Part shown: piece by piece, positions 6,127-52,042 of the stretch
Numbering within the stretch: position 1 is the stretch's first letter
Layout of the letters: the number at the start of each line of letters is the position of its first letter
NCBI GenBank assembly: GCA_965223265.1
Contig: OZ244999.1
Span: 6,688,001-6,752,000 of the forward strand
DNA length: 64,000 bases
Source: Planctomycetota bacterium
GTDB taxonomy: Bacteria > Planctomycetota > UBA8108 > SXIK01
Direction of reading: 5' to 3'
Translations under genes and position numbers: made by a program
Notes under the pieces: model-generated
The model's database searches: none
Told to the model about the DNA's origin: nothing
Seen by the model: the letters and a program-made list of their open reading frames with translations, nothing else

Positions 6127-6179
6127 CGGACTCGTTGACCGCCGGGGGCACGATAATCAGAGGCACTAACTCGCAAGCG

Positions 6180-9938: not shown

Positions 9939-11450
9939 TCAGGAAACAACCGCCTCAATTCTCACCGACAGTTGCGACCACCTGACAACGCGATTTCGTC
10001 CCCCGTTCTTCGCGGCGTAGAGTGCTCGATCGGCGCGATCGATGAGGACTGCGAGATCCCTGAGTTCGTGTTGTCTCTGAGCGACCCCAAAACTCGAAGT
10101 CACGGTGAATCCGAACTCGTTGCAAGACGCCACTCGCCGACGAATCTCCTCAGCCACCTCAGCTGCACCTGACTCGTTGACATCGCGCAGCGCGACGCAA
10201 AACTCCTCTCCTCCATAGCGGCACACCGCGTCACTGTCATTGACAACTTCTTGCACGATGTCAGAGACACGTTGGATCACCTTGTCTCCCATCGCGTGAC
10301 CGTGCGTGTCGTTGATACTCTTGAATCGATCGATGTCTAGCATAATGCATGAAAGAGGAGCACCCGAATTCTGAGCGATCAACAGCTCTGTTTCAAAGAT
10401 CTCAAAGAAAGAACGTCGATTCAGGCACCCAGTTAATGGATCTCGCGTCGCGAGATAGCGAAGCTCCTTGTTCTTGCGGTCCACATCGTCACGCGATCGC
10501 TTGAGCATCAGTACCATCTGCTGCAGTTGATCGTTCTTCTCCTCTATATTTGTCACGTCATCGAAAGTTACCAACGCGCCGCGAACTCTACCGTCCGGTG
10601 ATTGAATCACCGAGCTGTTGATCACCAGCGTTCGTGTTCCGGCGGCTGGCGTCGACAAGAACAGCGGCACACCGACGATGCCGCGCCCTTCTTTGATCGT
10701 GTCTAACCACGGAAAATTGGCTTCTTCACGTGCATCCCGTGCGTTGACCCAAGGGAGCTTCGACAGCCGCTCCCCCATCAACGACGAAGAAGGTCGTCCA
10801 ACTTTTTGCGCAAACGCCAGATTAGCAAGAACGATCTGTCCTTTAGCGTCGATCAGGACGACACCTTCGGCAAGCGCATCCAACGTACGTTTGACGCGCT
10901 TCGGCACGACGCTTGATGGATCCAACTGACGGAGAGTGCGTTTGATGAAGGTGAGGAAGAGAAAAAAACCCATCACACCGACGAAAAGTGCCGTCGCGAT
11001 AAAGTGACTCACGCCGGTCCCGAAAACGCCTCGGCGGAACTTCTCGAAACGAAGTTCCAGTGTTCCCCACCGACTGCCCGCATTAAAAATTGGAACTTTT
11101 GCGTGCGTCGGGGTCGAATACTCCCCCGCCTGTCGCCCCCAGTACTCTGCGTGGTTCTCGGTGTTGATGAGGAGCTCTCCATCGAGGCTTCTCAGGCCCA
11201 CCGATCGGATGTCCGAGTTTCGGCTCGTTACTGCGACGATCGTTTGGCGCACGGCCTCATAGTCGCTACGGCCTGCCGCCATCGAGACTTGAACGGCCAA
11301 CGACTCACAAAACCGCTTGCGTGCGTCCATGGCCGACCGATTCGGATCCGGCATCAACCCGATCCATTCGGCGATCACGAGGACGCTGACAGTCAGCAGC
11401 GCCAAACCTAAACTGATTCCGACCGAGGGTGACAGGCGACTCAGTCTCAT
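9939..11450 (-). CDS. Membrane-bound PAS-GGDEF diguanylate cyclase
   Basis: Two hydrophobic helices flanking a periplasmic region; PAS (LDALAEGVVLID...LANLAF); DPLTGCLNRR, DIDRFKSINDTHGH, RYGGEEF, AKNGGRNR; gggag RBS before ATG 11450. Confidence 0.93.
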   Translation of the reverse strand: MRLSRLSPSVGISLGLALLTVSVLVIAEWIGLMPDPNRSAMDARKRFCESLAVQVSMAAGRSDYEAVRQTIVAVTSRNSDIRSVGLRSLDGELLINTENHAEYWGRQAGEYSTPTHAKVPIFNAGSRWGTLELRFEKFRRGVFGTGVSHFIATALFVGVMGFFLFLTFIKRTLRQLDPSSVVPKRVKRTLDALAEGVVLIDAKGQIVLANLAFAQKVGRPSSSLMGERLSKLPWVNARDAREEANFPWLDTIKEGRGIVGVPLFLSTPAAGTRTLVINSSVIQSPDGRVRGALVTFDDVTNIEEKNDQLQQMVLMLKRSRDDVDRKNKELRYLATRDPLTGCLNRRSFFEIFETELLIAQNSGAPLSCIMLDIDRFKSINDTHGHAMGDKVIQRVSDIVQEVVNDSDAVCRYGGEEFCVALRDVNESGAAEVAEEIRRRVASCNEFGFTVTSSFGVAQRQHELRDLAVLIDRADRALYAAKNGGRNRVVRWSQLSVRIEAVVS

Positions 11451-11544
11451 CCGCACTCCCGACCCGAGGGTCTGACGCGGGAGGACGAGACGGTGGCGAT
11501 CTTCCCGTCAGGCGGTAAGTCGCGATCTCTGGCGGTTTTGCCTC

Positions 11545-14500
11545 TCATCCAAGCAAGTCTCCCAACTGTTCACCTTCCTCTTCTTCTTCTCGGCGTACCT
11601 CCCGTTCGCGCTTCGTCTTTTCATGCGCCGATAACGCGAGGATCGGCATGGGATCGAACCACACCCAGATCGGCACCGTCGACAGGAAGCTCGTCAGCAA
11701 GGACCCGGCCCGAAGCAGCCAAGTGACGAACCCAACGCTCAAGACCAGCGACGTTACTTGGAGCGAGGTTGAAAAGAAGCTTTGACCATCGTCATCGTCC
11801 GACTCGCTCGCGTCGATCTCATTTCCCATAACATCCAAAGCTTCCCAAAACGCGGCGCTCATAGGAGAGAGTCTCTCGACGATACGCACCTCGGTGGCTA
11901 GCTCGTCTTCGAGTTCCACATCTGGCACGTGGACGTCGATGTCGCTCGTGGTGTAGACCACTTCGACGGGATCAATCGGTGCTATCGGGTCGATCGCAGG
12001 GACGATGCGCGGACGAGGATCCGTTGGGCGAGGCTGCCCGGGAGTGGGACTTTGGTTGGGCGCTACAGGCCCTGGGCTGTCCTCACTCGGCGGCTGAGGA
12101 AGATCCGGCGATTCGTTGGGCGAGGGGGCGTCGACGTCGACGTCGCCGCCGGAGCCGTCGCTATCATCGGTTCCGTCGCTGTCGGACCCCGTATCGTCGG
12201 GAGTCTCTGGCGCGGTCGATTCGGGTTCTTCGCCGGGTGGCGGCGGCTCGGGATCGTCAAACGGATCACTATCCGGAGGACCGGCGTCTGGCACGAACGT
12301 CGAGCCACTCAATTGCACCGTGACGACGGCCGCTGTCGAAAGCGTAGGCACGCCCGAGTCTTCTACAAGCACCACCAGGTTGTAGGTCGGTAGGGCGACT
12401 GGGTCGAGAGCGGTGCTGTCGTTGACACTTACCACGCCGCTGTTCGGATCGATCGCGAATGCGTTACCGGTATTGCCGGACACGAAAGAGAACGTTAGGA
12501 CGTCGCCCATGTCAGGGTCACTGGCCGGCACGATTCCGACCACGGTGCCATTGACACTGCTCGCCACATCGAGAGTGACGGTGAAAGATGAAGCAACGGG
12601 CACGTCGTTGACGCTGGTCACGTCGATCGTCATCATGCGTGCGGCGGTGTCCGTATCGGTGCCGCTGTTGAGCGTGCCGCCATCGTCTTGAACTTGGAAC
12701 GTGAACGAGTCGTAGCCTGTGCCGTGGGCATCAGCCACGGGCTTAAACTTCAGGCGTCCCGCGGCGATGTCAGCGGCGCTGATCGCATCGAGCGCCGAGG
12801 CCGCCTCGCCGGCGTCCACCACGCCGTCGAGGTCTGTGTCTACATAGAGCGTGCCTGTTGACGTCGTTGTCGTCGCGATCACATTGAGGAGCGCGTTGGC
12901 CGGGCTGTCGCTGGGGTCGGTGAAGCCGAAGTCGCCTGTAGTGAACACATAGTCTGTGTCCTCTAGCGTCGTCACCGTGTTCGCTGTGCCCACCGGTGCA
13001 TCGTTGACGCTGGTAACGTCGATCGTCATCGTCCGAGGCGTCGGATCGGTGTCGACGCCGCTGTTCAGCGTGCCGCCGTCGTCTTGCACTTGGAACGTGA
13101 ACGACTCGTAGCCCGCGCCGTGGGCATCCGCCACCGGCCGGAACTTCAGGCGTCCCGCGGCGATGTCGCCGGCGCTGATGGCGTCGAGCGCCACCACAGC
13201 CTCTCCAGCGTCTACGACACCATCGAGGTCGGCATCGACGTAGAGCGAGCCAGTCGACGTTGTCGTCGTGGCGATCACATTGAGGAGCGCGTTCGCCGGG
13301 CTGTCGCTGGGGTCGGTGAAGCCGAAATCACCAGCCGTGAACACGTAGTCTGTGTCCTCTAGCGTCGTCACCGTGTTCGCTGTGCCCACCGGTGCGTCGT
13401 TGACGCTGGTGGCGTCGATCGTCATCACGCGCGCCGTGGTGTCCGTATCCACGCCGCTGTTCAGCGTGCCGCCATCGTCCTGAACCTGGAATGTGAACGA
13501 GTCGTAGCCCGTACCGTGAGCGTTCGGCGCTGGCTGGAACTTCAGCTGGCCAGCGGCGATGTCGGCGGCGCTGATCGCGTCGAGTGCCGAGACTGCTTCC
13601 CCAGCGTCGACCACGCCGTCGAGGTCAGCGTCGACGTAAAGCGTGCCGACCGATGGCGTCGTCGTGGCGACTATATTGAGGAGCGCGTTGGCTGGACTGT
13701 CGTTCGGATCGGTGAAGCCGAAATCGCCCGCGGTGAACACGTAGTCCGTGTCTTCAAGTGTCGTCACCGTGTTCGCCGTGCCTACGGGCGCGTCGTTAAC
13801 ACTCGTCACATCGATCGTCATGCTCCGCGGCGTCGGATCGGTGTCGACGCCGCTGTTCAGCGTGCCGCCGTCATCCTGAACCTGGAACGTGAACGAGTCG
13901 TAGCCCGCGCCATGGGCATCCGCCACAGGCCGGAACTTCAGACGACCCGCGGCGATGTCGGCGGCGCTGATCGCGTCGAGCGCAGCGACTGCCTCGCCGG
14001 CATCGACGACGCCGTCGAGGTCCGCGTCAACATACAGCGTGCCCGTTGACGTCGTCGTCGTGGCGATCACGTTCAGAAGTGCGTTCGCCGGGCTGTCGTT
14101 CGGGTCCGTGAAGCCGAAATCGCCCGCGGTGAACACGTAGTCCGTGTCTTCAAGTATCGTCACCGTGTTCGCCGTGCCGACGGGCGCGTCGTTGACACTC
14201 GTCACATCGATGGTCATCACCCGCGCGGTGGTGTCTGTATCAGCGCCGCTGTTGAGCGTGCCGCCATCGTCTTGAACTTGGAACGTGAACGAGTCGTAGC
14301 CTGTGCCGTGGGCATCCGCCACAGGCTGGAACTTCAGGCGGCCAGCCGCGATGTCGGCGGCGCTGATCGCGTCGAGTGCGGCGACGGCTTCCCCAGCGTC
14401 GACGACGCCATCGAGGTCGGCGTCCACATAGAGCGTACCTGTTGACGACGTCGTCGTGGCGATTACATTGAGGAGCGCGTTGGCTGGACTGTCGTTCGGA

Positions 14501-17500
14501 TCGGTGAAACCGAAATCGCCCGCGGTGAACACGTAGTCCGTGTCTTCAAGTGTCGTCACCGTGTTCGCCGTGCCTACGGGCGCGTCGTTAACACTCGTCA
14601 CATCGATCGTCATGCTCCGCGGCGTCGGATCGGTGTCGACGCCGCTGTTCAGCGTGCCGCCGTCATCCTGAACCTGGAACGTGAACGAGTCGTAGCCCGC
14701 GCCATGGGCATCCGCCACAGGCCGGAACTTCAGACGACCCGCGGCGATGTCGGCGGCGCTGATCGCGTCGAGCGCAGCGACTGCCTCGCCGGCATCGACG
14801 ACGCCGTCGAGGTCCGCGTCAACATACAGCGTGCCCGTTGACGTCGTCGTCGTGGCGATCACGTTCAGAAGTGCGTTCGCCGGGCTGTCGTTCGGGTCCG
14901 TGAAGCCGAAATCGCCCGCGGTGAACACGTAGTCCGTGTCTTCAAGTATCGTCACCGTGTTCGCCGTGCCGACGGGCGCGTCGTTGACACTCGTCACATC
15001 GATGGTCATCACCCGCGCGGTGGTGTCTGTATCAGCGCCGCTGTTGAGCGTGCCGCCATCGTCTTGAACTAGGAACGTGAACGAGTCGTAGCCTGTGCCG
15101 TGGGCATCCGCCACAGGCTGGAACTTCAGGCGGCCAGCCGCGATGTCGGCGGCGCTGATCGCGTCGAGTGCGGCGACGGCTTCCCCAGCGTCGACGACGC
15201 CATCGAGGTCGGCGTCCACATAGAGCGTACCTGTTGACGACGTCGTCGTGGCGATTACATTGAGGAGCGCGTTGGCTGGACTGTCGTTCGGATCGGTGAA
15301 ACCGAAATCGCCCGCGGTGAACACGTAGTCCGTGTCTTCAAGTGTCGTCACCGTGTTCGCCGTGCCGACGGGCGCGTCGTTGACGCTCGTCACATCGATG
15401 GTCATGGTCCGAGGCGTCGGATCGGTGTCGACGCCGCTGTTCAAAGTGCCGCCGTCGTCCTGAACCTGGAACGTGAACGAGTCGTAGCCCGTGCCCGTAG
15501 CGCCTGGCACCGGCTGGAACTTCAGGCGGCCAGCTGCGATGTCGGCGGCGCTGATCGCGTCGAGCGCCGCGACGGCTTCCCCAACGTCGACGACGCCATC
15601 GAGGTCCGTGTCGACATAGAGCGTGCCCGTTGACGTCGTTGTCGTCGCGATCACATTGAGGAGCGCGTTGGCGGGGCTGTCGCTGGGGTCGGTGAAGCCG
15701 AAGTCGCCTGTAGTGAACACATAGTCTGTGTCCTCTAGCGTCGTCACCGTGTTCGCCGTGCCGACGGGCGCGTCGTTGACACTCGTCACGTCGATGGTCA
15801 TCACCCGCGCGGTGGTGTCAGTATCAGCACCGCTGTTGAGCGTGCCGCCATCGTCTTGCACTTGGAACGTAAAGGAGTCGTAACCCGCGCCATGGGCATC
15901 CGCCACCGGCTGGAACTTCAGGCGACCTGCGGCGATGTCGGCCGCGCTGATCGCGTCGAGTGCCGCGACGGCTTCCCCAGCGTCGACCACACCGTCGAGG
16001 TCGGCATCGACATACAGCATGCCGACCGACGTCGTTGTCGTCGCGATCACATTGAGGAGCGCGTTGGCGGGGCTGTCGCTGGGGTCGGTGAAGCCGAAAT
16101 CACCAGCCGTGAACACGTAGTCTGTGTCCTCTAGCGTCGTCACCGTGTTCGCCGTGCCCACCGGTGCGTCGTTGACGCTGGTGACGTCGAGCGTCATCGT
16201 CCGAGGCGTCGGATCGGTGTCGACGCCGCTGTTCAGCGTGCCGCCGTCGTCCTGAACCTGGAACGTGAACGAGTCGTAGCCCGTGCCCGTCGCACCTGGT
16301 ACCGGCTGGAACTTCAGGCGACCGGCGGCGATGTCCGCCGCACTGATCGCATCGAGCGACGCGACTGCTTCGCCGACGTCGACTACGCCATCGAGATCCA
16401 CGTCGACATATAGCGTGCCGACCGATGTCGTCGTCGTGGCGATCACGTTCAAGAGTGCGTTGGCTGGACTATCGTTCGGATCGGTGAAACCGAAATCGCC
16501 CGCGGTGAACACGTAGTCCGTGTCCTCAAGTGTCGTCACGGTGTTCGCTGTGCCCACCGGTGCATCGTTGACGCTGGTGACATCGATCGTCATGGTCCGC
16601 GGCGTCGGATCGGTATCAACGCCGCCATTCAAAGTGCCGCCGTCGTCCTGAACCTGGAACGTGAACGAGTCGTAGCCCGTGCCCGTCGCACCTGGCACCG
16701 GCTGGAACTTTAGGCGGCGAGCGGCGATGTCGGCGGCGCTGATCGCGTCGAGCGCCGAGACTGCTTCGCCGGCGTCGACCACGCCGTCGAGGTCAGCGTC
16801 AACATACAGTGTGCCCGTTGACGTCGTCGTCGTGGCGATCACATTGAGGAGCGAGTTGGCCGGGCTGTCGTTCGGGTCCGTGAACCCGAAATCGCCCGCG
16901 GTGAACACGTAGTCCGTGTCTTCAAGTGTCGTCACCGTGTTCGCCGTGCCGACGGGCGCGTCGTTGACACTCGTCACATCGATGGTCATCACCCGCGCGG
17001 TGGTGTCTGTATCAGCGCCGCTGTTGAGCGTGCCGCCATCGTCTTGAACTTGGAACGTGAACGAGTCGTAGCCTGTGCCGTGGGCATCCGCCACAGGCTG
17101 GAACTTCAGGCGGCCAGCCGCGATGTCGGCGGCGCTGATCGCATCGAGCGACGCGACTACTTCGCCGACGTCGACTACGCCATCGAGATCCACGTCGACA
17201 TATAGCGTGCCTGTTGACGTCGTTGTCGTCGCGATCACATTGAGGAGCGCGTTGGCCGGGCTGTCGTTCGGGTCGGTGAAGCCGAAGTCGCCTGTAGTGA
17301 ACACATAGTCTGTGTCCTCTAGCGTCGTCACCGTGTTCGCTGTGCCCACCGGTGCATCGTTGACGCTGGTGACGTCGATCGTCATCGTCCGAGGCGTCGG
17401 ATCGGTGTCGACGCCGCTGTTCAAAGTGCCGCCGTCGTCCTGAACCTGGAATGTGAACGAGTCGTAGGTCGTGCTGTGAGCGTTCGCTGCCGGCTGGAAC

Positions 17501-20500
17501 TTCAGGCGTCCCGCGGCGATGTCGCCGGCGCTGATGGCGTCGAGCGCCACCACAGCCTCTCCAGCGTCTACGACACCGTCGAGGTCGGCATCGACATACA
17601 GCGTGCCGACCGACGTCGTCGTCGTGGCGATCACGTTCAAGAGTGCGTTCGCCGGGCTGTCGTTCGGGTCCGTGAACCCGAAATCGCCCGCGATGAACAC
17701 GTAGTCCGTGTCTTCTAGCGTCGTCACCGTGTTCGCCGTGCCGACCGGTGCGTCATTGACGCTCGTCACGTCGATGGTCATCACCCGCGCGGTGGTGTCT
17801 GTATCAGCGCCGCTGTTGAGCGTACCGCCATCGTCCTGGACCTGAAACGTGAACGAGTCGTAACCCACGCCCGTAGCGCCTGGCACCGGCCGGAACTTCA
17901 GACGACCCGCGGCGATGTCGGCCACACTGATCGAGTCCAAGGCCGTCACTGCTTCACCGCCGTCCACGACACCGTCGAGGTCGGCATCGACATACAGCGT
18001 GCCGACCGACGTCGTCGTCGTGGCGATCACGTTCAAGAGTGCGTTCGCCGGGCTGTCGTTCGGGTCCGTGAACCCGAAATCGCCCGCGATGAACACGTAG
18101 TCCGTGTCTTCAAGTGTCGTCACCGTGTTCGCCGTGCCTACGGGCGCGTCATTGACGCTCGTCACATCGATGGTCATCGTCCGCGGCGTCGGATCGGTGT
18201 CGACGCCGCCATTCAAAGTGCCGCCGTCGTCCTGGACCTGGAACGTGAACGAGTCGTAGCCCGCTCCATGGGCATCCACCGCGGGCTGGAACTTCAGACG
18301 ACCGGCAGCGATGTCGGCGACGCTGATCGCGTCAAGCGCAGCGACAGCTTCACCTGCGTCGACCACGCCGTCGAGGTCAGCGTCGACGTAGAGCGTTCCC
18401 GTCGAGGTAGTCGTGCTTGCGATCACGTTCAGTAGCGCGTTCGCCGGACTGTCGTTCGGATCACTGAAGCCAAAGTCACCCGCCCCAAAAACGTAGTCCG
18501 CGCCCTCGAGAGTTGTGACCGTATTCGCTGTGCCCGCGGGCGCATCGTTCACCGCGGTGATGTCCACGTTGACGCTGCCGAGGATCACTGTTCCGCCACC
18601 GCCGCTTCCGGTGTGCCCGCCGTCACTGATTTCTATTTGGATAGCGTCGGCGTTGTCGCCGGCGGTGTGGATCGTCCCATGCTGGTATAGAATCCGTACG
18701 GGCGAATCGATGAACGAATTGAGGTCGGCGACCGACCCGATCAGCGACAAAATCCCGGTACCACTTCCGAACACGGTGACGTCGACATCGGAAGACGACA
18801 CAAGATTCCCACCAGTACTCGTACGCAACGTCAAAGTGACCAACTGATTGCCAGAGTCGACGTCACTGAGATCGATGGCAGACAGGTCGATGAAGCTAGC
18901 AACGTCCTCGATCACGGTCAAATCGGTTGGTAGTGATCCAACGTTGGTGGGGTCGTCGTTAACGGCTGTCACGTCAATCGTCATCGTCCGTGGCGTCGGA
19001 TCAGTGTCGACGCCGCTGTTCAGCGTGCCGCCATCATCCTGAACCTGGAAAGTAAACGTCGTGTACGGCGTCCCACTTGCATCCGCCACGGGCTGGAACT
19101 TCAGGTTCCCTGCCGCGATGTCAGCACTGCCAATCGAATCGAGCGCTGCGACAGCCTCGCCAGCGTCGACGGTGCCATCAGCGTCGGCGTCGACATAGAG
19201 CGTGCCAGCTGACGGTGCTGTTGCCACCACCACGTTCAGAAGCGTGTTCGAAGGGCTGTCGTTCGGGTCCGTGAAGCCAAAATCTCCGGCGACGAAGACG
19301 TAGTCGGTGTCTTCGTTTGTGGTCACGGTATTGTTCGAACCAACAGGTGCATCATTGACGCTCGTCACATCGATTGCCATCGTCCGCGCGGTGGTGTCCG
19401 TGTCGACGCCACCGTTGAGCGCACCACCATCATCCTGCACTTGGAACGTGAACGAGTCGTAGCCCGTGCCGTGGGCATCCGCCACCGGCTGGAACTTCAG
19501 GCGGCCAGCGGCGATGTCGGTCGCACTGATCGCATCGAGCGCAACGACTGCTTCGCCGACGTCGACTACGCCATCGAGATCTGCGTCTACATAGAGCGTG
19601 CCAGCCGTCGTCGTCGTCGCGGCAATCACGTTGAGCAGCGCGTTCGCTGGGCTGTCGTTCGGATCAGTGAAACCGAAGTCGCCCGCAGCGAACACATAGT
19701 CCGTGTCCTCCAGCGTCGTCACCGTGTTCGCTGTGCCGACGGGTGCGTCGTTGACGCTGGTGACGTCGATGGTCATCGTCCGCGGCGTCGGATCGGTGTC
19801 CATGCCGCTGTTGAGCGTGCCGCCGTCATCCTGCACTTGGAACGTAAACGAGTCGTAGCCCGTGCCATGGGCATCAGCCACCGGCTGGAACTTCAGGCGG
19901 CCAGCTGCGATGTCGGCCGCACTGATCGAGTTCAGGGCAACCACCGCTTCACCCGCGTCCACCACGCCGTCAAGATCCGCGTCAACATAGAGCGTGCCCG
20001 TTGACGTCGTCGTCGTGGCGATCACATTGAGAAGTGCGTTCGACGGGCTGTCGTTCGGGTCAGTGAAACCGAAATCGCCCGCCGTGAACACGTAGTCTGT
20101 GTCTTCCAGTGTCGTCACGGTGTTCGCGGTGCCCACCGGCGCGTCGTTAACGCTCGTCACGTCGATCGTCATGGTCCGCGGCGTCGGATCGGTGTCCACG
20201 CCGCCGTTGAGCGTACCACCATCATCCTGCACCTGGAACGTGAAGGAGTCGTAGCCCGTGCCGTGGGCATCAGCCACCGGCTGAAATTTGAGACGACCAG
20301 CAGCAATGTCCACGGCACTGATGGAGTCCGAAGCCGCCACCGTTTCACCCGCATCCACAACACCGTCGAGATCCGCGTCGACGTAAAGCGTTCCCACCGA
20401 CATCGTTGTCGTTGCGATCACGTTGAGGAGCGCGTCCGCCGGGCTGTCGTTCGGGTCACTGAAGCCAAAGTCGCCGGTCGTGAACACGTAGTCCGTGTCC

Positions 20501-39591: not shown

Positions 39592-41574
39592 ATGTCAAAT
39601 TTGGTGACCACATTCACGTCGCCAGAGAGAACGCGCTCTGGGCAACCAAAGATCATGAAGAGTCACTCGTCTACGCAGTCAATTACCGAACCGCTCGAGC
39701 ATACCGAACGGGCGAGGCAACACTCAGCTGACAATGCGGAGAACAAGAGCCCCTCATCTCTTGCTCAACTGTGTGCCGCCTGGATCGAGAATCAATGCCG
39801 CAACACGGGCGCAATTAGCTCAGCGTTCGCAACCCTCTTGAGTGCCGAGTCAGGCGACGCGATCAAACTTTCGTGGCCGCACTCGATCGCCACATCTTCG
39901 GAAGTCGAGCTGACAGCGGCTTCCGTCGAGAAGGAACAGCGCGTTGTTGTTCGCCGAGTTACGCGGAAGACCACAGACACGTCGACGGGGGAGGCGGCCA
40001 AGTCGATCCACATCGGACTGCCGCTCAACCGCGGCTCCGATCGTATCGGCACCGCGGTATTCGTTACGCACGATCAGTCCGACGGTTCGACGCATGCTCT
40101 TGCCAAGAGGCTCTATCAGAGCAGCGATTGGATCGATGAGCTCGCAGGGCCGATAACATCGCGGTCGCCAACCGAGAACTCCGCCTCAACAACCTCTCCC
40201 GATCTCCGCTTCGTGTTCGAGAGGTTTTGCACGCTGCTGGAGCAGGACCACTGGGAGACCGCATTGACTGCGTTCATGACGGAGTTGGCCTCTCACTTCG
40301 ACTGCGATCGCGCCAGCCTCGGGTTCGCGCAGCGCGGGCAGATTCGCCTCGCCGTCGTCTCAAGCACGGTGGAACTCGATCGCAAGACGAATGCAGCCCG
40401 CGCGATCGAGCGCTGCATGGACGAATGCTATCACCAAAGCGCGATCATAAAGTATCCGGCATCCGCGGCTGCGAGTGGGTCAGAATTTCGACTGACACGA
40501 GCTCACGATGAGTTGGCAAGGGAACTCAAGGCCGCTGCCATCTACTCCCTCCCCATTGTCGCTCACGGGGAAGTGATCGGGGTCGCAACCTTCGAGCATC
40601 GCGGCGCGGACGGACTCAGCGACCGAGCCATCTCGCTGTGCGATCTGGTGCTCGGAATGGCAGCTCCCTACCTACGACTGAGGCTTCGTGAACAGCGCCC
40701 GTGGTCAATCCGCGCGGCAGACGCGGCTGCAGACCTCAAGTCACGCTTCGCCTCGAAGGGCCATCGCGGCTGGAAAATCGGCGCTGCCTGCGCAGTGTTA
40801 GGTAGCCTCTTTCTATTCTTTGCCCACGGAGACTTCAGAGTTACGTCCCCTGGAATCCTGGAAGGATCGGTACAACGCTCACTCGTCGCCCCGTTTGACG
40901 GGTTCGTGCGAAGCTCCGAGATCCGGGCCGGTGAGGTCATTGCACAAGGCACAACACTTTGCACTCTGGATGATCGAGACCTCACACTCGAGGAGAGTAA
41001 GTGGCGCAGTGAGAAAGAGCAGATCGACAAACAGTACCAACAAGCCCTAGCCGAGCATGACGCCGTCGGACTCAAGATGCTCGCCGCGCGGAGCCGGCAG
41101 GCCGAGGCGCAGTTGAACTTGATTCGTGATCACATCAGGAAGACCCGTGTGGTTGCACCATTCGATGGAGTTGTCGTCCGCGGCGACTTGAGTCAGTCGA
41201 TCGGGGCGCCGGTGGCGCGTGGTGACGTACTCTATCAGATCGCTCCGCTCGATGGGTATCGAGTCAGCTTGCTGGTGGATGAACGAGATATCGCACACGT
41301 GAGCGAGTCGCAGCACGGCCGACTTGTGCTTCCGGCGTTTCCAGGTGAAAGCCTGCCGTTTGTTGTCACGAACGTCACGCCTGTCTCCACGACCGAGGAA
41401 GGACGAAATCACTTTCGCGTCGAAGCGAAACTGACTGAGAGGCCGAGTATTCGACTTCGTCCTGGTATGGAAGGTGTCGCCAAAATCGAAGTCGGTTCAA
41501 GAAACCTGTTCTACATCTGGACCCGCGGCGCCATTGAATGGCTGCAGCTGTGGTCATGGAAGTGGCTCCCATAG
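39592..41574 (+). CDS. GAF-domain HlyD-family membrane fusion protein
   Basis: GAF-like region (CDRASLG, AIERCMDEC, SLPIVAHGEVIGVATFE), one TM, APFDGFV...IRAGEVI, VVAPFDGVVVRGDL, LRPGMEGVAKI. Confidence 0.85.
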   Translation: MSNLVTTFTSPERTRSGQPKIMKSHSSTQSITEPLEHTERARQHSADNAENKSPSSLAQLCAAWIENQCRNTGAISSAFATLLSAESGDAIKLSWPHSIATSSEVELTAASVEKEQRVVVRRVTRKTTDTSTGEAAKSIHIGLPLNRGSDRIGTAVFVTHDQSDGSTHALAKRLYQSSDWIDELAGPITSRSPTENSASTTSPDLRFVFERFCTLLEQDHWETALTAFMTELASHFDCDRASLGFAQRGQIRLAVVSSTVELDRKTNAARAIERCMDECYHQSAIIKYPASAAASGSEFRLTRAHDELARELKAAAIYSLPIVAHGEVIGVATFEHRGADGLSDRAISLCDLVLGMAAPYLRLRLREQRPWSIRAADAAADLKSRFASKGHRGWKIGAACAVLGSLFLFFAHGDFRVTSPGILEGSVQRSLVAPFDGFVRSSEIRAGEVIAQGTTLCTLDDRDLTLEESKWRSEKEQIDKQYQQALAEHDAVGLKMLAARSRQAEAQLNLIRDHIRKTRVVAPFDGVVVRGDLSQSIGAPVARGDVLYQIAPLDGYRVSLLVDERDIAHVSESQHGRLVLPAFPGESLPFVVTNVTPVSTTEEGRNHFRVEAKLTERPSIRLRPGMEGVAKIEVGSRNLFYIWTRGAIEWLQLWSWKWLP

Positions 41575-41585
41575 GGATCGACGCG

Positions 41586-43769
41586 ATGGCGGGAACAAAT
41601 CACACAACCACGACCGACCGCGGCGCTGGAAGCTCCACAGCGAGCCCTTGGTGGGCACGTGTGGCCGATTTGCGTCCGCGGGTGCGGTCTCACGTCCGCC
41701 TCCATCGCCATGAGTATCGAGGTCAGGTCTGGTATGTCCTACAAAACCTGTTCAATTCACGGCACTTTCGACTGCCACCCAACTCCTATCTTCTTCTGGA
41801 GCTGATGAATGGCGTTCGAACAGTTGACGACATCTGGCAGGAAGCGAAGAGTCGCTTAGAAGACGAAGCTCCAAGCCAATCTCAGTGCATCCATCTGCTG
41901 TCGCAGCTTCACGTCGCCGATGCAATGACGTGTGACACGTCGCCCGACATCTCTCAGATGCTCACTCGATTCGAAAAGCGACATCGGCGTAAGTGGCACG
42001 AAGTATTGATGTCACCCCTGTTCTGGAAGCTGCCCTGCTTCGACCCAGAAAAATTTCTAGAAAAGGCCGCACCGTTGGCGAGGCCACTCTTCGCAAAGTG
42101 GGGCTTGCTCGCCTGGATTTCGGTAGTGGGATACGCAGCATCGCTGGTGGTCACCCACTGGCCTGATCTGACGGAGAACATCAGGGATCGAGTCTTTACC
42201 CCACAAAGCCTATTTCTGCTTTGGATTCTCTTCCCGATCTTGAAGACGATCCACGAGTTCGGCCACGCGATCGCCGTCAAGGTGTACGGCGGCGAAGTTC
42301 ACCGCGTCGGACTAATGCTTCTCGTCCTGACGCCGTTGCCATACATCGACGCCTCGGCTGCTTCCACCTTTCGCCGCAAACGAGAACGCGTAATCGTCGG
42401 ACTCGCGGGCATGATGGTCGAGCTTTTCGTTGCATCGATAGCGTTCTTTCTGTGGCTAAACGTCGAAGCCGGTACCGTCAAGACGATCCTCTACAACGTC
42501 ATTCTCCTCGCCGGTGTCACGACGGTCCTTTTCAACATCAACCCACTTCTGCGCTTCGACGGCTACTATGTTCTCTCCGACCTGATCGAAATCCCAAACC
42601 TTCGATCGCGATCGACCCAGTATCTACGCTACTTGATTGAACGCTACGTCTTCGGAGTTCGATTGCCTGCGTTCAATGCGGCCAAGAATGAACGCATGTG
42701 GCTTGTCAGCTACTCCGTTCTCTCGTTTCTCTACCGGATGATGATTCTCACAGGAATCATCATCTTCATCGCCGGGAAGTTCTTCTTCGTCGGCATCCTC
42801 TTGGCACTCTGGGGTTTCTCGTGTTGGATCGCCTGGCCGCTCTGGAAGAGTGGCCGCTACATCTTGACGCATCCCCGTCTCGATGCCGTTCGAGTGCGAG
42901 CTGCAGCGTCGGCGGCGGCAATCTTGCTTGCAGGCATCGTCCTTGTCTGCGCGATTCCTTTCCCCCTTGGTACGTACTGCGAGGGTGTCGTGTGGGTACC
43001 GAACGAGGGCGCCGTTCGTTCGACGGCAGACGGGTTCGTCACTTCGGTGCCGGCCGCTTCCGGGTCGACGGTGACCAAGGGTACGACGCTCATCGTTTGC
43101 GAGGATCCGATCGTCGACACGGGAATCGTGGCTCTTGAGGCAGAGCTTGAGGCACTGCAAGCGGAGTACGACAACGTCTGGAGACACGATCACGCCAAGG
43201 CAAAGATCGTCGATGAGAAGATCTCCCAAATCAAATCTAAGCTCTCCCGACAGATCGAGCGGCGCGCAGACCTCACCGTCGCGGCGCATTGCGACGGCAC
43301 CTTGGTGCTCCCTGTTTCTCAAGATCTCGTAGGGCGTTTCGTGGAGCAGGGAACGCTACTGGGCCACGTGCTCGATCTTGAGCAGGTGAAAGTACGCGTC
43401 GTCGTACCAGAGGGGTCGATCGATCTTGTTCGCGACACAACGAGGGCTGTTGAGCTTCGTCTAGCCGAGCGCGTCGGCGCGACCGTCCCGGCAAAGGTGG
43501 TTCGGGAAGTACCAGCTGTCTCGCAGGAGCTTCCGAGCGTCGCACTCGGAACGAGCGGCGGCGGCAGTATCGCGGTCGACCCTGCAGACGCCAAAGGCCT
43601 CACCGCACTGGATCGGTTCTATCAATTGGAACTCGAATGTGCGACGGCGGGTGGTGTCGTCAACGTCGGTGGCCGGGCGTTCGTACGCTTCGACCACGGC
43701 TGGGAACCGCTCGCGTGGCGCTGGTACCGCAGTGTTCGCCGACTTTTCTTGCGCCGCTTCAGCGTTTAA
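41586..43769 (+). CDS. M50 (site-2) metalloprotease fused to an HlyD-like domain, with a possible N-terminal PqqD-like domain
   Basis: HEFGH (HExxH) in a TM region, NINPLLRFDGYY (NxxPxxxxDG), several TMs, C-terminal STADGFV...GSTVTKG lipoyl-like hairpin and coiled coil; N-terminal LMNGVRTVDDIW resembles a PqqD-like winged helix. Confidence 0.88.
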   Translation: MAGTNHTTTTDRGAGSSTASPWWARVADLRPRVRSHVRLHRHEYRGQVWYVLQNLFNSRHFRLPPNSYLLLELMNGVRTVDDIWQEAKSRLEDEAPSQSQCIHLLSQLHVADAMTCDTSPDISQMLTRFEKRHRRKWHEVLMSPLFWKLPCFDPEKFLEKAAPLARPLFAKWGLLAWISVVGYAASLVVTHWPDLTENIRDRVFTPQSLFLLWILFPILKTIHEFGHAIAVKVYGGEVHRVGLMLLVLTPLPYIDASAASTFRRKRERVIVGLAGMMVELFVASIAFFLWLNVEAGTVKTILYNVILLAGVTTVLFNINPLLRFDGYYVLSDLIEIPNLRSRSTQYLRYLIERYVFGVRLPAFNAAKNERMWLVSYSVLSFLYRMMILTGIIIFIAGKFFFVGILLALWGFSCWIAWPLWKSGRYILTHPRLDAVRVRAAASAAAILLAGIVLVCAIPFPLGTYCEGVVWVPNEGAVRSTADGFVTSVPAASGSTVTKGTTLIVCEDPIVDTGIVALEAELEALQAEYDNVWRHDHAKAKIVDEKISQIKSKLSRQIERRADLTVAAHCDGTLVLPVSQDLVGRFVEQGTLLGHVLDLEQVKVRVVVPEGSIDLVRDTTRAVELRLAERVGATVPAKVVREVPAVSQELPSVALGTSGGGSIAVDPADAKGLTALDRFYQLELECATAGGVVNVGGRAFVRFDHGWEPLAWRWYRSVRRLFLRRFSV

Positions 43770-43779
43770 GGAACCCCTG

Positions 43780-45501
43780 ATGTTTACCACGCACTTCATA
43801 CCGCGTCCTCTACGAGGCGCCTATGCCGAGCGGTCTCCCGACGAGAGAGTCTTGCGAAGAATTCCGCTCGCACCTCTAGCAACAAAAGCCATCGCCCGCC
43901 TACAGCTTCACAAGGTCAACAGTATCATTCGGCACGTGTTGGAACATGAAGAGACCTTCTACGGCCTCTCCATGGACAAACTTCGATGCGAGATCGCCGC
44001 GACGCGATCCGCCTTACGAAGCGAAGGCATGACCCGTGCCGTCGTTGGCCGCTGTATCGCACTCCACCGCGAGGCATTCACACGCTTGGAGTCACGTCAT
44101 CCTCCGATTTCGCACGCTCTCGCGACACTCGAGTTGCTGCGGGGACGCGCAGTCGAAGTCGATGACCCGTCGGCGCGCCGCTTCGCGGTTCTCGCCGCAA
44201 GCTCGATCGCAGCCCTCGCGGGTGTGCCCGTTCACGTGATTTCCACAACAGACGACGACGCCAAAAGGAATGCAAACGATGCTGAGGAACTCTGCAGCAT
44301 CACTGGGGTGCGAATCGGAACGATCCGTTCCGGTTTGTGTGCTACTGAACGACGCGCAGCGTACGCTCAAGACATCACGTTCGTGGCCGCCGACGAAGTC
44401 GCCCTCGATTCATTGCGAGATCAACAACTTCTCGGCGGTTCGCCGAGCAGGCTTCGCCTGAATCTCGAGAACGTCGCGTCGTCACGACCTCGAGAACGCT
44501 TCCTTCTCCTTCGAGGACTTCACTGCGCCATCATCGACGGTATCGACGATGTCCTCCTGAGTGCGAACGCCAGACCTGTTCAGCTCCACGCGCCGGTCGC
44601 GTCCTCCTCCGAGAGACCCGACAGCTCGGCGAACAGACAGCCGCTTGCGGTGAGCAGCTATCCAGCATTCTTCACGCGATACTTGCAGATTGCGGGCGTC
44701 GGCTCCTCGCTTAGTCAAAGGGTCGACGAGCTCACCGCGAGTTACAATCTCTCTGTAGTCAGTGTAGCTGGCTGCAAAGCTAGAGTGGCGAACGTTACAG
44801 AACGACAAGGTCAGCGCAGGATCTTTCGAAGGGACGGAGACTACTGGCAGGCGCTCGTCGACCGCGTCGGCTCACTCTGCCGTGCCGGCAATAGGCCGAT
44901 CGTCGCCATGGCAACCGTAGAGTCTCTAGACGAGCTCGCCGCCCGCCTGGCGACAACGCACGTCCCCTTCCAGACGCTCCCCATGAGTCGCGAGTCACAA
45001 GGGACACCGTCAAGGAAAGAGTCGGAGCTCACGTCGCGATGCTCAAGTAAGACCGCTGCGGCCATCCTAACGACCGACACGGCGTTGAGCCAAGTGGAGG
45101 TCGCTCGGCTGTCGCAGATCGGAAGCGGTGGAAGCCACCTCATCACCACTTACTGCGGCGGCGCGGCAACGGCACGGCGATTCTTTCACCGACTGCCGCG
45201 AACGGAACAACCCATCGTTCACGAGGAGTACCTGTCGTGCGAGAGCGAACTCGCCCTGGCGAAGCTTCCGTGGTGGTGTCGATTGCTGGAGCGCTCGCCT
45301 CGGCTGCAGCGACAACTCTGGGTAGGGAGGGTTCTTCTTTGGTCGGCGCAAAAACGATCCGAACGTCTTGCCCGCGCCATGCGACGCCGAACGGCGCGCC
45401 AAAGTGACCTTCTCCAAGAGCAAGTGAAACAAACACTCGCGTTCTCCGGAACCTACACAAAACCACAAACGCGACCAGACCCGTCTATCGCGAAACGGTA
45501 G
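43780..45501 (+). CDS. Degenerate SecA DEAD-like protein
   Basis: SecA-like segments ALAGVPVHVIS, RRAAYAQDITF, DSLRD, LRGLHCAIID, FFTRYLQIAG; catalytic motifs are altered; aagga RBS before ATG 43780. Confidence 0.8.
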   Translation: MFTTHFIPRPLRGAYAERSPDERVLRRIPLAPLATKAIARLQLHKVNSIIRHVLEHEETFYGLSMDKLRCEIAATRSALRSEGMTRAVVGRCIALHREAFTRLESRHPPISHALATLELLRGRAVEVDDPSARRFAVLAASSIAALAGVPVHVISTTDDDAKRNANDAEELCSITGVRIGTIRSGLCATERRAAYAQDITFVAADEVALDSLRDQQLLGGSPSRLRLNLENVASSRPRERFLLLRGLHCAIIDGIDDVLLSANARPVQLHAPVASSSERPDSSANRQPLAVSSYPAFFTRYLQIAGVGSSLSQRVDELTASYNLSVVSVAGCKARVANVTERQGQRRIFRRDGDYWQALVDRVGSLCRAGNRPIVAMATVESLDELAARLATTHVPFQTLPMSRESQGTPSRKESELTSRCSSKTAAAILTTDTALSQVEVARLSQIGSGGSHLITTYCGGAATARRFFHRLPRTEQPIVHEEYLSCESELALAKLPWWCRLLERSPRLQRQLWVGRVLLWSAQKRSERLARAMRRRTARQSDLLQEQVKQTLAFSGTYTKPQTRPDPSIAKR

Positions 45502-45526
45502 TCCAACAAAAGATCGGGACAAGACC

Positions 45527-46414
45527 ATGCTGCAACGATTCACCTCCAACCCTCTAGCGCCTCCCCTACTGAAGAGAGTTTCGCGCCGCGTAAAGCTAGC
45601 CCTGCCTCTCGCTCTCGCCGTCGTGCTGACGGGACTGAGAAGCCAGGGTGACGAGCCAGGGCAACGCCTCACAGAGTTCGACGGGGTGACGGAGCCCTCG
45701 CAAGAAGTCCTCGTCGCCGCCGCTGCGGATGGACTGATCGCATCGATCGAAGTCGATCGTGGCAGCACGGTGGCGAAGGGACAGATCGTTGCGACGCTCG
45801 AGTCGAGCGTTCAAGCAACACTTTTAGACGTCGCCGAAGCACGAACAGAGTTGACTGCCGATCTCAGACGACAGGAGGCGAGCCTCGAATTCCACCGACT
45901 GAAGGAGCAGCGGGATGAACGCCTTTTCCAAAAAGGAATCATCTCTGATCAGGTCTTCGCCCAAAGCCATCGCGATCGACGCCTGGCCGAAGCGAACCTG
46001 CTCCAAGCCGAAGAAGATTTGCGTCTCGCCAAGCTCGAGAGAGATCACGCTCAGGCAAGGTTGACCCAGCGAACCATCCGCAGTCCTCTCGACGGCGTCG
46101 TGGTGGAGCGTCTTATGTCACCTGGCGAACTGGTCACTCAAGGTCGCAACGCAGAGATTCTGAAAGTTGCGCAGATCAATCCTCTCCACGTCGAAGTCAT
46201 TCTCCCGGTTGAGATCTTCGGCTCCGTCGAGGTTGGAATGCTGGCTGAGATTCGACTTGATTCTTCTGCCGACACTCACCCGGCGGCTGTCACTGTTGTC
46301 GATCGCGTCGTCGACGCCGCCAGTGGCACGTTCGGAATCAGGCTCGAGCTCGCCAACGAAAACGGTGATATACCGGCCGGAGTCAAATGTCGCGTTCGAC
46401 TGGTGCGGGAATGA
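45527..46414 (+). CDS. RND/HlyD-type periplasmic adaptor (membrane fusion protein)
   Basis: ADGLIASIEVDRGSTVAKGQ, IRSPLDGVVVER, VDRVVDAASGTF, IPAGVKC. Confidence 0.9.
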   Translation: MLQRFTSNPLAPPLLKRVSRRVKLALPLALAVVLTGLRSQGDEPGQRLTEFDGVTEPSQEVLVAAAADGLIASIEVDRGSTVAKGQIVATLESSVQATLLDVAEARTELTADLRRQEASLEFHRLKEQRDERLFQKGIISDQVFAQSHRDRRLAEANLLQAEEDLRLAKLERDHAQARLTQRTIRSPLDGVVVERLMSPGELVTQGRNAEILKVAQINPLHVEVILPVEIFGSVEVGMLAEIRLDSSADTHPAAVTVVDRVVDAASGTFGIRLELANENGDIPAGVKCRVRLVRE

Positions 46415-48159
46415 CCATCGTCTCCCCCCGCCTTCCCACCACTGAACCCACGAACCGTTTGGTCTACCTCACGAACGCGCGGAGAACCTGTCTGGATGCG
46501 TCCGTGAGCCGCCTGACGCTGCTGTGGGCAACTCTCTGCCTGGGCCTCGCGACGCAGCATAGCGACGCCGCGCCACGCAGCAGCGCGAAATCGACGGCGA
46601 TTGCGCCGAAAGACATGTCATCGTCTGTCGACGTCGCAACGCGATCGAGCGGCGCACAAGCGGAGAAGGCGATCATAGAGATTTCCGTCGAGGAAGCGAT
46701 TCGCATGGCACTCGCGAATAGCTTTGACGTCAAAATCGCTTCGACCGGCCACAGAATTCGACAGCGCGAAGTGGCGATCGAGAGAGCCGAGTTCGACCCT
46801 TTCTTCTTCGGAGGTACGGACTACTCCAAGAATCGCAAGCCGACAGCCAGCTTTCTTGATGTAGGCAATACCGCACTTCAAGGCGTCACGAATAACCCGT
46901 TCGAGACGTGGAGCTACCACGTTGGCATCGGCGGAAAGTCCTGGCTGGGAACGCTCTACAGTGTGGAGCTGCGCCACTCAGCCCTCGATCAACCACTGGC
47001 CAACCAAACAATCTTCGGCATCAACCCGCAGGAACAGGTCACCGCGACATTTGAGGTCACACAGCCCCTCCTACGTGGAGGTTGGCAGCAGTACAACTCT
47101 GCGCGAATCCGCATCGCCGCAAACGACGAGCAGATCTCGCAGCACGACCTGAAGCACCGCGCTACCGAAATCCTATACTCCGTCGAAGTCACCTATTGGC
47201 GACTTAGCTATGCAATCAAGAACTACGAGTCGAAGCAAAAAGCTCTTCAAGCGACGAACGACTACCTCGCGATCGTACGGACAGCTCACGAGGCTGGCGC
47301 CATGTCTGTCAGCGATTTGCTGTCCGCGAAGAGCCAACTGGCGCTGCGCAAAGTAGAACTCAACGAAAGCCTTGTTCTCGTTCGCGACACACGCGATCGG
47401 CTGCTTCTTTTGGTCAATCGCGGCGGCGGCGAAGAATCGCTCAAGGAAAAGTGGCGCAACGGCGTTCTCGAACCGACCTTTGACGACGTCTGGGTCATCC
47501 CGACGTCGGAACCTGACACGACTCCGATGTCACCGAGCCGAACTCAGTCTCTCGAAATCGCATTCGATCAGCGCGCCGACTACAGACAACTACTTCTCCA
47601 CGACAAAAGCCATCGAGTCGGTGCTCAAGTAGCAAAGAACGAGTCGCTCCCGGATCTCAACGCCCTGTTTCGGTGGCAACAATTCGGCCTTGACGACGAC
47701 TTCGGTGCGTCGTATTCCTCGCTGGGTGACGGGGACTTTTACGGCTGGACGGTTGGGGTGGAGCTTCGATTTCCGCTCTTCAATCGCGGCCCCAAGGAGC
47801 GTTACTGGCAAGCTCTCGACCGGATCTCTGAGACCAATCTCCGACGCAGAAAGCTGGAGAATCAAATCGTCGCACAAGTCGACCAGAGCATTCGCAACCT
47901 CGCGGCGATCCAGGAGAGGCTGGCGGATTTGGCCGAACGGGTCGAGCTTCAAAACGAGCTTCTGCAGCAAGAGCGCGACAAGCTCCAGCTCGGAAACGCG
48001 ACCGTCTACAACATCACGCTGATGGAAAACGATTTGTTAGAAAGCGAGGCTCTCTCGCTTCGAGCAAAGTCAGAATATCAGGCGGCGAAGGCCGACTACG
48101 CACGAGCGATTGGCACACTACTCTCTGATCGCGGCGTTGAAACAATGGGGACCGAGTAA
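46411..48159 (+). CDS. TolC-family outer membrane channel
   Basis: ISVEEAIRMALANS, VTQPLLRGG, VEVTYWRL, LPDLNA, VGVELRFPLFNR; ATGA overlap with the upstream gene. Confidence 0.88.
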   Translation: MTIVSPRLPTTEPTNRLVYLTNARRTCLDASVSRLTLLWATLCLGLATQHSDAAPRSSAKSTAIAPKDMSSSVDVATRSSGAQAEKAIIEISVEEAIRMALANSFDVKIASTGHRIRQREVAIERAEFDPFFFGGTDYSKNRKPTASFLDVGNTALQGVTNNPFETWSYHVGIGGKSWLGTLYSVELRHSALDQPLANQTIFGINPQEQVTATFEVTQPLLRGGWQQYNSARIRIAANDEQISQHDLKHRATEILYSVEVTYWRLSYAIKNYESKQKALQATNDYLAIVRTAHEAGAMSVSDLLSAKSQLALRKVELNESLVLVRDTRDRLLLLVNRGGGEESLKEKWRNGVLEPTFDDVWVIPTSEPDTTPMSPSRTQSLEIAFDQRADYRQLLLHDKSHRVGAQVAKNESLPDLNALFRWQQFGLDDDFGASYSSLGDGDFYGWTVGVELRFPLFNRGPKERYWQALDRISETNLRRRKLENQIVAQVDQSIRNLAAIQERLADLAERVELQNELLQQERDKLQLGNATVYNITLMENDLLESEALSLRAKSEYQAAKADYARAIGTLLSDRGVETMGTE

Positions 48160-51893: not shown

Positions 51894-52042
51894 CACATTC
51901 TGACGAAAGTTCGACCCAAAGCGCGGCTCGTCGCCCGCCGACGACTTTCGCAATGCGGAGCATATGTAGGCGATATGAGGAGCATCGAGTGTATCTCCCC
52001 TCTCATCCAGTGTTCCAAGCGCGCAGCCCGGCGCTCGACGAC

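Follow-up and report, generated by a model that had tools for sequence, protein, structure and literature searches.

A giant LEPR-XLL protein beside a pump-less adaptor and TolC operon with a degenerate SecA-like protein in a planctomycete genome

A conserved locus encoding GAF-HlyD, M50-HlyD, SecA_DEAD and HlyD proteins, in some cases with an OEP-family outer-membrane factor, was described computationally by Kamneva, Poudel and Ward (2015, PLoS One; PMC4452313), who noted the absence of an ATP-binding cassette (ABC) transporter; in their proposal SecA_DEAD would serve as the ATPase, while the pore in the membrane would be formed by the M50 protein in place of the missing transporter. The module has been known since then solely as a gene neighbourhood, without a substrate, and it bears on the question of how the largest bacterial proteins that have neither Sec signals nor RTX/ABC systems leave the cell. 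Here we analyse a locus of this type in a Planctomycetota bacterium, within a stretch of 64,000 nucleotides (the window; bases 6,688,001-6,752,000 of a single 9.18-Mb contig, from a genome with a completeness of 91.65%) in which a five-gene operon stands beside the gene of an 8,707-residue protein, the giant. We think it reasonably likely that this region encodes one cargo plus a dedicated envelope-spanning machine of the secondary SecA_DEAD module family, and that the two form a leader-guided route with a dead motor and a tail-sensor pairing.

The operon has all of the components of the module described in 2015 (GAF+HlyD, Peptidase_M50+HlyD, a SecA_DEAD paralogue, HlyD/Biotin_lipoyl and sometimes OEP), and the taxa reported there overlap with those of the family considered here (Planctomycetes, Proteobacteria and Nitrospirae). 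An original prediction for this DNA, made from the sequence alone, had stated that secondary SecA_DEAD proteins occur beside type I secretion-like genes, and the published locus bears that out; its idea that an M50 protein takes the place of the ABC transporter is not new, being already in PMC4452313. The differences are that the accessible text of that paper names no substrate, leader, RRE-like domain or tail-sensor pair, and that the SecA_DEAD protein of the window is, by its motifs, catalytically dead and has lost its preprotein cross-linking domain (PPXD). A search of mainly open-access literature found nothing on a leader link, an RRE-like domain, a tail-sensor pair or ATPase-dead variants; LEPR-XLL receives only passing mentions in the passages found, and one preprint (10.1101/2023.11.21.568195) mentions SecA_DEAD solely inside giant Omnitrophota proteins, in the passages found. 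With its leader defined, a protease predicted to bind that leader and a tether predicted to pair with a sensor, the module becomes open to biochemical tests.

The five genes lie on the plus strand and encode, in order, proteins with the Pfam domains GAF+HlyD, M50+HlyD, SecA_DEAD, HlyD and OEP. The first product (39592-41574) combines a cytoplasmic GAF domain, one transmembrane segment at about residues 393-411 and a periplasmic adaptor, as judged by Pfam and hydropathy. It is followed by the RRE-like/M50/HlyD fusion (41586-43769; longest open reading frame, ORF, 41538-43769), to which Pfam assigns a weak Peptidase_M50 domain plus HlyD; the 573-residue SecA-like protein, hereafter pseudo-SecA (43780-45501; longest ORF 43639-45501), with SecA_DEAD as its sole Pfam domain; a small HlyD-type periplasmic adaptor of 295 residues (45527-46414; recognised by Pfam and by NCBIfam RND_mfp at 126 bits, cut-off 94.9); and a TolC-family outer-membrane factor (46411-48159, alternative start 46387; Pfam OEP in two stretches, 128 bits). 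The likely ATG starts that match those of homologues, at 41586, 43780, 45527 and 46411, leave gaps of 11, 10 and 25 nt, and the HlyD and TolC genes overlap at an ATGA, so that the tight packing first proposed is confirmed. Membrane fusion protein (MFP)-type domains (HlyD_3/HlyD_D23) are present on three of the operon proteins and OEP on one, and Pfam finds no ABC or resistance-nodulation-division (RND) gene within the operon or its flanks in the window, in agreement with the gene inventory of the original prediction.

The giant (11545-37668, minus strand) is divergent from the operon, and its ORF is intact. A LEPR-XLL leader is followed by an acidic region, DUF7948, an SBBP propeller, repeated beta-helix modules, Laminin_G_3, about 24 tandem-95/cadherin-like repeats and a membrane tail. 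The protein contains no cysteine, and 1164 Asp and Glu residues against 216 Lys and Arg; a Cys-free and very acidic composition is typical of proteins that cross the envelope unfolded. Neither a hydrophobic signal peptide at the N-terminus (sequence and hydropathy) nor a HemolysinCabind/RTX match (Pfam) was found in it, as had been claimed for it at the outset. The leader lies at 37588-37653 on the minus strand, with the core LEELEPRILLSA at giant residues ~6-27; residues 7-27 match the NCBIfam LEPR-XLL model (NF012209; scores of 24.3 and 30.6 bits, cut-off 17), and the leader was aligned with 25 other N-termini. The L-E-x-R-x-x-L positions of such leaders are invariant. The giant is the sole LEPR-XLL match above cut-off in the 9.18-Mb genome, the module is also present in a single copy, and the two adjoin each other.

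The association extends well beyond the window. We searched 401 genomes of the phylum with two markers, LEPR-XLL, found in 65, and the fusion's M50 domain, found in 112; pseudo-SecA itself had been considered as a probe (20/401 genomes) and was dropped, since so degenerate a query undercounts, and a SecA-like profile, A1, was rejected as a paralogue marker when canonical SecA scored 775 bits against 562 for the window copy. Both markers occur in 59 genomes, LEPR-XLL only in six (mostly weak matches, E 0.004-0.04), M50 only in 53 and neither in 283, so that M50 is present in 59/65 LEPR-positive and in 53/336 LEPR-negative genomes. A second sample, 181 genomes from the class of a Marinobacterium genome and including an unpublished genome (G591) that falls on the M50-only side, gave 15 genomes with both, 12 with M50 only, eight with LEPR-XLL only and 146 with neither (LEPR-XLL in 15/27 M50-positive vs 8/154 M50-negative genomes). 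The Fisher values of 3e-32 and 2e-9 for the first and second samples overstate the association since related genomes are not independent; many of the discordant genomes have weak matches or incomplete assemblies.

The nearest relatives of the M50-HlyD fusion in other phyla, encoded at 80 loci, made up a third set, and 50 of the genomes concerned were searched whole. LEPR-XLL is above cut-off in 46 of the 50, as compared to none of 14 control genomes. GAF-HlyD is encoded at 73 of the 80 loci, a SecA-like protein at 66 and HlyD at 57, and the gene order of the window module recurs in genomes G200, G023 and G174 and in most of the 80. It could be argued that the operon exports or matures a small peptide resembling the ribosomally synthesised and post-translationally modified peptides (RiPPs), or is an efflux device, and that the giant is nearby by chance: the M50 part has its closest matches among RiPP leader peptidases, RiPP pathways typically include an RRE-like domain, and a motif scan places a LEPR N-terminus within 10 kb in only about a tenth of the 80 loci. 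That scan (8-9/80) was discarded, and the low count is an artefact of gene length, because the giant genes are longer than the 10-kb flank; of the 37 loci whose flanks are complete, 29 are entered by an ORF of at least 1,500 residues, which in most cases shares the strand of M50-HlyD and stops 2-4 kb upstream of it, and the LEPR matches map, with agreeing coordinates, to the distal ends of ORFs that are 4,000-14,440 residues long. No small precursor gene or RiPP tailoring enzyme is seen in the operon, and together with the strong co-occurrence at genome level in two samples this makes a chance neighbourhood very improbable.

The fusion protein is the component in which the leader and the machine would meet. 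Residues 1-135 are like PqqD and the RiPP recognition element (RRE), residues ~160-460 form the polytopic M50 part, with about six hydrophobic segments by hydropathy, and residues ~470-727 are the HlyD adaptor. Both zinc-site motifs, HEFGH at residues 223-227 and NxxPxxxxDG at 317-326, are present and are invariant or nearly so in 30 homologues, and the intact site-2 protease originally read from the sequence stands. It is a distant relative of the Pfam family (PF02163, 17.9 bits, under the gathering threshold of 27.2). The nearest NCBIfam model of the M50 part is daptide_HExxH (NF041824; 1.6e-48, 165.7 bits vs a cut-off of 300, model positions 1-354/379) and the second is YydH/LiaK (6.7e-11, 42.3 bits vs a cut-off of 225); with both scores under cut-off, we judge it to be a relative of these RiPP leader peptidase families and not a member. 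The N-terminal domain is modelled by AlphaFold2 as a small domain of three strands (37-44, 47-54 and 59-63) and then three helices, with a confidence (pLDDT) of 86; an RRE proper is a winged fold of a three-stranded sheet and three helices that takes up a leader as a further strand. Its profile matches PqqD (3g2b) over the full length, weakly, at an E value of 0.0089, and Foldseek retrieves PqqD, the PbtF RRE, TbiB1 and lasso-peptide B1 leader complexes at weak E values of 0.02-0.1, its matches to the domain ranging from 0.004 to 0.1 overall. With moderate confidence we call this domain RRE-like.

Complex prediction was performed with residues 1-460 of the fusion and residues 1-45 of the giant, both as alignments, in three runs and with three controls. 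The leader with the fusion reached a complex score of 0.62 as compared to 0.00 for the best control, with at least 78% of contacts agreeing between runs and a partner pLDDT of at least 54; in calibration, 116 of 157 solved complexes and two of 215 mismatched pairs attained the mark used for this score. In the model, leader residues 2-23 touch the RRE-like domain at residues 51-67 and 94-111, lying on its strand 58-64 and its helix 94-111, as well as protease residues 220-227, 251-260 and 312-341, which include the catalytic site. The end that the machine recognises is most likely the N-terminal LEPR-XLL leader, and not the C-terminus of the giant, which the original prediction had meant to model with the M50 fusion. 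The M50 site probably cleaves the leader.

This arrangement invites comparison with the peptidase-containing ABC transporters (PCATs) and the M50-like RiPP leader peptidases of the daptide and YydH-LiaK types. In common with these systems, an exporter would read and remove an N-terminal leader, with a putative RRE-type leader-binding domain and an HlyD-type adaptor partner. The protease of the window differs, being an intramembrane HExxH enzyme fused to an adaptor and not a C39 domain on an ABC pump, and it would act on a cargo of several thousand residues. Its NCBIfam scores, given above, lie under the cut-offs.

In an alignment of pseudo-SecA with 16 homologues, DPSARRFAV replaces TGEGKTLTA at the Walker A site, DGIDDVLLSAN replaces DEADSVLIDEA at Walker B and ILTTDTALSQV replaces TNMAGRGTDI at motif VI; all three motifs are kept in 16/16 homologues and all three are altered in the window protein, so that the designation pseudo-SecA in the original prediction was correct. 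About 130 residues are deleted, corresponding to the whole of the PPXD (PF01043), and in the Pfam listing nearly all relatives carry PF01043 (protein P0031 is an exception) while the window protein has PF07517 only. A set of 31 intact proteins has 134 columns conserved to at least 90%; pseudo-SecA keeps 47 of these and has lost 20 by deletion, whereas the intact members keep 122-134. The NCBIfam SecA model gives it 83 bits against a cut-off of 800, and a search of 5.8 billion clusters finds no relative nearer than one with 37% identity over 49% of its length. The AlphaFold2 model (pLDDT 81) leans on the alignment of intact relatives; its best Foldseek match is SecA 3jv2 (E 8.5e-26). By comparison with SecA and SecA2, it retains the fold of the two nucleotide-binding domains, NBD1 and NBD2, and the long scaffold helix, and it departs from them in lacking Walker A, Walker B, motif VI, the PPXD, the wing and the C-terminal domains.

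Loss of the ATPase motifs is not confined to the window. GEGK[ST] is kept in 64 of the 66 loci of other phyla that have a SecA-like gene, and in one of the remaining two the frame is split; further ATPase-dead copies are found in G174, at L145 (a metagenome-assembled genome of Burkholderiales) and as protein P0031. The G174 copy stands in an otherwise intact operon with a giant upstream. On M50-HlyD trees, one of which is a quick tree, the window groups with G174, G200 and G023 (SH-aLRT support 100), of which G200 and G023 have intact motors, and L145 falls outside this group. Because loci with intact motors separate the dead copies on these trees, ATPase loss arose at least twice by this reading. 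A tree of the SecA-like proteins groups the four dead copies, and we read this as long-branch attraction, since the M50-HlyD trees put intact loci between them. All of the dead copies keep a G-x-Y-P-E-R-like motif at the N-terminus and a LAFSG-like motif at the C-terminus, which suggests a retained docking role. The window can be regarded as an experiment done by nature, in which the ATPase and the clamp have gone from the motor while the rest of the system is intact; it reveals which SecA-like parts persist after the loss of catalysis and so bears on a motor versus a scaffold role.

An alternative is that the module is no longer functional in this organism, the SecA-like gene being an early pseudogene that is still open and the giant either not exported or a relic. 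The loss of all ATPase motifs and of the PPXD, with 47 of the 134 conserved columns kept, is what decay would produce; pseudo-SecA is a singleton, its gene has a higher GC content at second and a lower one at third codon positions than its neighbours (a flatter GC1/2/3 periodicity), and DUF3467, encoded beside the module in two other loci that we examined, was not found in the window genome. The frame is nonetheless open for 573 codons where the other two frames have 15 and nine stops, an outcome expected by chance at 2e-8, and the 26-kb ORF of the giant, the M50 catalytic motifs and all four other operon genes are intact. The recurrence of dead copies in otherwise intact operons (G174, L145) and as P0031, with at least two origins, and the two motifs common to all of them, further argue against decay, which we regard as unlikely although by no means negligible. 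We note that in G174 (locus L087), the other planctomycete locus with a dead SecA-like gene, an RTX-repeat giant lies upstream (3-6137) and the DUF3467 gene (6241-6675) precedes GAF-HlyD.

Type I secretion offers a second point of reference. The HlyBD-TolC system, and the LapEBC system that exports LapA under the control of LapD and LapG, share with the system proposed for the window an MFP and TolC duct, a giant, acidic and repeat-rich cargo without Cys, tethering of this cargo at the surface and a link to cyclic di-GMP (c-di-GMP). The window locus differs in having no ABC transporter and a cargo without RTX repeats, in a predicted signal that is N-terminal and not C-terminal, in the predicted retention of the C-terminus and not the N-terminus, and in the absence of LapG. 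Of the classical features of type I systems, an MFP and TolC are present, while an ABC transporter and a C-terminal or RTX signal are lacking, the C-terminus of the giant being a hydrophobic tail. No PrtD-type type I ABC transporter (TIGR01842) was found above cut-off in the genome, the best match having 230.6 bits against 510.

These observations also bear on the possibility that the module only cuts the leader and organises anchoring or quality control, and that Sec or an unlinked ABC exporter translocates the giant. The motor here is dead, canonical SecA and generic ABC exporters are present in the genome, and SecA-less forms of the module stand beside LEPR proteins in four planctomycete loci; an M50 domain of about six transmembrane segments is not known to form a protein channel. 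Weighing on the other side are the lack of a hydrophobic signal peptide on the giant, the lack of a type I ABC transporter above cut-off, the three MFPs plus TolC in one operon, which argue for a trans-envelope duct, and the Walker A motif kept by the SecA-like gene in 64/66 related loci. We consider a role restricted to processing and tethering to be improbable. What stands of the claim that the M50 fusion replaces the ABC transporter is a pump-less TolC and MFP set tied to the giant, with the fusion as its predicted handler; that the six-segment M50 domain is itself a protein-conducting channel is a step that we only infer. At the SecA-less loci (L089-L092, in G397, G256, G292 and G157), HlyD, GAF-HlyD and a longer M50-HlyD protein of 823-1306 residues have LEPR-type RTX/PKD proteins as neighbours; at two of the four there are in addition large ORFs of 599-967 residues without a Pfam family, which might replace the motor.

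The C-terminal end of the giant provides a further correlation. Its last 117 residues (11548-11898, minus strand) form a conserved membrane tail with a hydrophobic core containing W-x-LR-x-GSL and P-x-W-x(3)-DP-x-P-x-L, followed by a charged end. Word-index searches found just two and one tail proteins, and an exhaustive HMMER search was used, in which the tail matches 2,900 representative proteins at E<=1e-3 and 159 at E<=1e-10, and in all of the 150 proteins listed the match sits at the extreme C-terminus; no Pfam or NCBIfam model matches the tail at E<=1. We fetched 24 of these proteins, ten of them with a real N-terminus, of which nine have a LEPR-type motif and one a Sec-type signal; a 7,426-residue protein and an 11,600-residue LEPR giant of G200 carry both leader and tail.

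The gene directly downstream of the tail, after a gap of 88 nt, encodes a membrane sensor diguanylate cyclase (9939-11456, minus strand; Pfam PAS+GGDEF). Residues 1-325 are the sensor, with two transmembrane segments, a periplasmic part, a PAS domain and a coiled coil, and residues 330-495 are the GGDEF domain (PF00990, 143 bits), with an intact GGEEF at residue 415, from which we read its role as a cyclase; the flanking cyclase of the original prediction is thus in place. The sensor part is 48% identical to that of a PAS histidine kinase beside the module in G200, and also matches that of G023. Among the 50 module-bearing genomes searched whole, 16 carry the tail and 16 the sensor (E<=1e-15), and the two sets are identical, with neither in the other 34; judging by the coordinates, some 20 of the 26 matches to the sensor follow immediately downstream of a tail encoded on that strand. 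The output domain varies, being a histidine kinase in G200 and G023 and GGDEF in the window and at L161. We conclude from these sequence comparisons that the cyclase is a conserved partner of the tail with a variable output domain, as far as such comparisons can tell. This gives the proposed link of the system to c-di-GMP a firmer basis than adjacency.

A Lap-like, c-di-GMP-controlled release, to which the original prediction had pointed as a precedent, finds no support: a LapG-type protease (Peptidase_C93, PF06035) was not found in the genome at its present completeness, and the LapD model matches the window through the GGDEF domain alone (46.6 bits vs 1020). The PilZ protein postulated nearby is a 134-residue product (38566-38970, plus strand) with RxxxR and DxSxxG motifs recognised by eye; in the protein atlas, PilZ clusters make up 28 of its 30 neighbours (top score 0.97). 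Even at E<=1 Pfam (PF07238) gives no match, and 100 related loci contain no homologue of it, so that its assignment as a PilZ protein is probable and short of the certainty first given to it.

Taking these elements together, we favor a route in which the giant, Cys-free and acidic, would be made in the cytoplasm with the LEPR-XLL leader at its N-terminus, and the RRE-like first domain of M50-HlyD would bind the leader as an added beta-strand and hand it on to the intramembrane HExxH site, where it is probably cut off. M50-HlyD, GAF-HlyD and the HlyD adaptor, plus TolC, would supply the path through the periplasm and the outer membrane. The hydrophobic tail would stay in the inner membrane and pair there with the membrane sensor encoded by the next gene; with a GGDEF cyclase as the output here, the state of the tethered giant would probably be signalled through c-di-GMP, for which the PilZ protein close by may be a reader. 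Relatives have a shortened but intact SecA-like ATPase as part of the set; its counterpart in the window is a pseudo-enzyme with a frame that stays open over 573 codons, and translocation would have to be either powered otherwise or impaired. Gene content, motifs, the loss of the ATPase motifs and the statistics on co-occurrence and neighbourhood are observed; binding, cleavage, path, topology, signalling and activity in this organism are inferred.

Several observations weigh against this route. Judged by its motifs, pseudo-SecA should be unable to hydrolyse ATP, and as the genome has no second dedicated candidate for the ATPase, a functioning export route can only be presumed for this organism; the protein is without the clamp domain, and its isolation among the 5.8 billion clusters and its flat GC pattern fit decay as well as they fit a scaffold role. 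The generic ABC exporters elsewhere in the genome count in the same direction. The PqqD and Foldseek matches of the RRE-like domain are weak, and the pass in complex prediction may reflect a likeness to solved RRE-leader complexes and not binding by this pair. No LEPR-XLL match is present in 53 of 112 M50-positive genomes of the phylum sample and 12 of 27 of the second sample, and six and eight LEPR-positive genomes, respectively, have no M50 marker. The tail is found in none of about 30 module-adjacent giants of other phyla, and is one class among several and no general part of the route; in G200 the sensor adjoins the module and not the giant, so that giant, module and sensor are not all adjacent there, and GGDEF genes lie near only seven of the 80 modules and PilZ genes near none.

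A bolder version of the leader-guided route, which we put forward only tentatively and regard as rather unlikely, is that LEPR-XLL giants use two-ended sorting, for which the literature searched offers no description: the leader would be docked and cut by an RRE-M50-adaptor that gates the TolC duct, and the C-terminal tail would remain in the inner membrane and be read by a dedicated sensor that here produces c-di-GMP. ATPase-dead SecA-like subunits recur in intact operons, the window copy being the most reduced; on this reading the motor would be dispensable and the chain of 8,707 residues would be threaded mainly from outside, by the folding of calcium-type repeats.

Other features of the giants vary among genomes. 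The alternative C-terminal motif W-x-x-D-F/Y-L/V-N-H ... Q-R-N-P-N-A-x-L-R/K ends several proteobacterial giants (L146, L159, L179, L191, L176 and L178), and those at L163, L167, L188 and L189 end in a short hydrophobic stretch followed by G-Q-R-G-W-R-L-like residues; the LEPR giants seem to fall into several C-terminal classes. Protein P0112 has a DUF4347 domain (residues 56-220, Pfam) directly after its LEPR-XLL leader, and look-alike stretches can be seen by eye in several other tail-bearing proteins; the window giant differs, its leader being followed by a 460-residue acidic low-complexity stretch and then DUF7948. Inspection by eye of the segment at 11545-19700 (minus strand) reveals runs of near-identical units of about 200 residues among the tandem-95/cadherin-like repeats, which suggests recent repeat homogenisation or expansion.

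Stretches without genes flank the PilZ-like gene on both sides (37669-38565, about 900 nt, and 38971-39591, about 620 nt). Minus-strand ORFs at 38265-38822, 38826-39224, 39091-39543 and 37735-38103 were taken as spurious, having no family matches and overlapping the PilZ frame. No Rfam family, c-di-GMP riboswitches included, was found in 37400-39800, and pattern scans for promoters and terminators around the PilZ-like gene gave no excess over chance. The operon is followed on its 3' side by a gene for a 2-oxoacid dehydrogenase E2 component and then by one for an M24 peptidase (Pfam). A homocysteine S-methyltransferase gene lies near the system both in the window (7400-8407, plus strand) and in G200 (L085:19002-20000), and may be a remnant of common synteny around the module in the family that these two represent. 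Three kb downstream of the operon, at 50988-52073 on the minus strand, is a gene for a Transglut_core2 (transglutaminase-like) protein with HEAT repeats.

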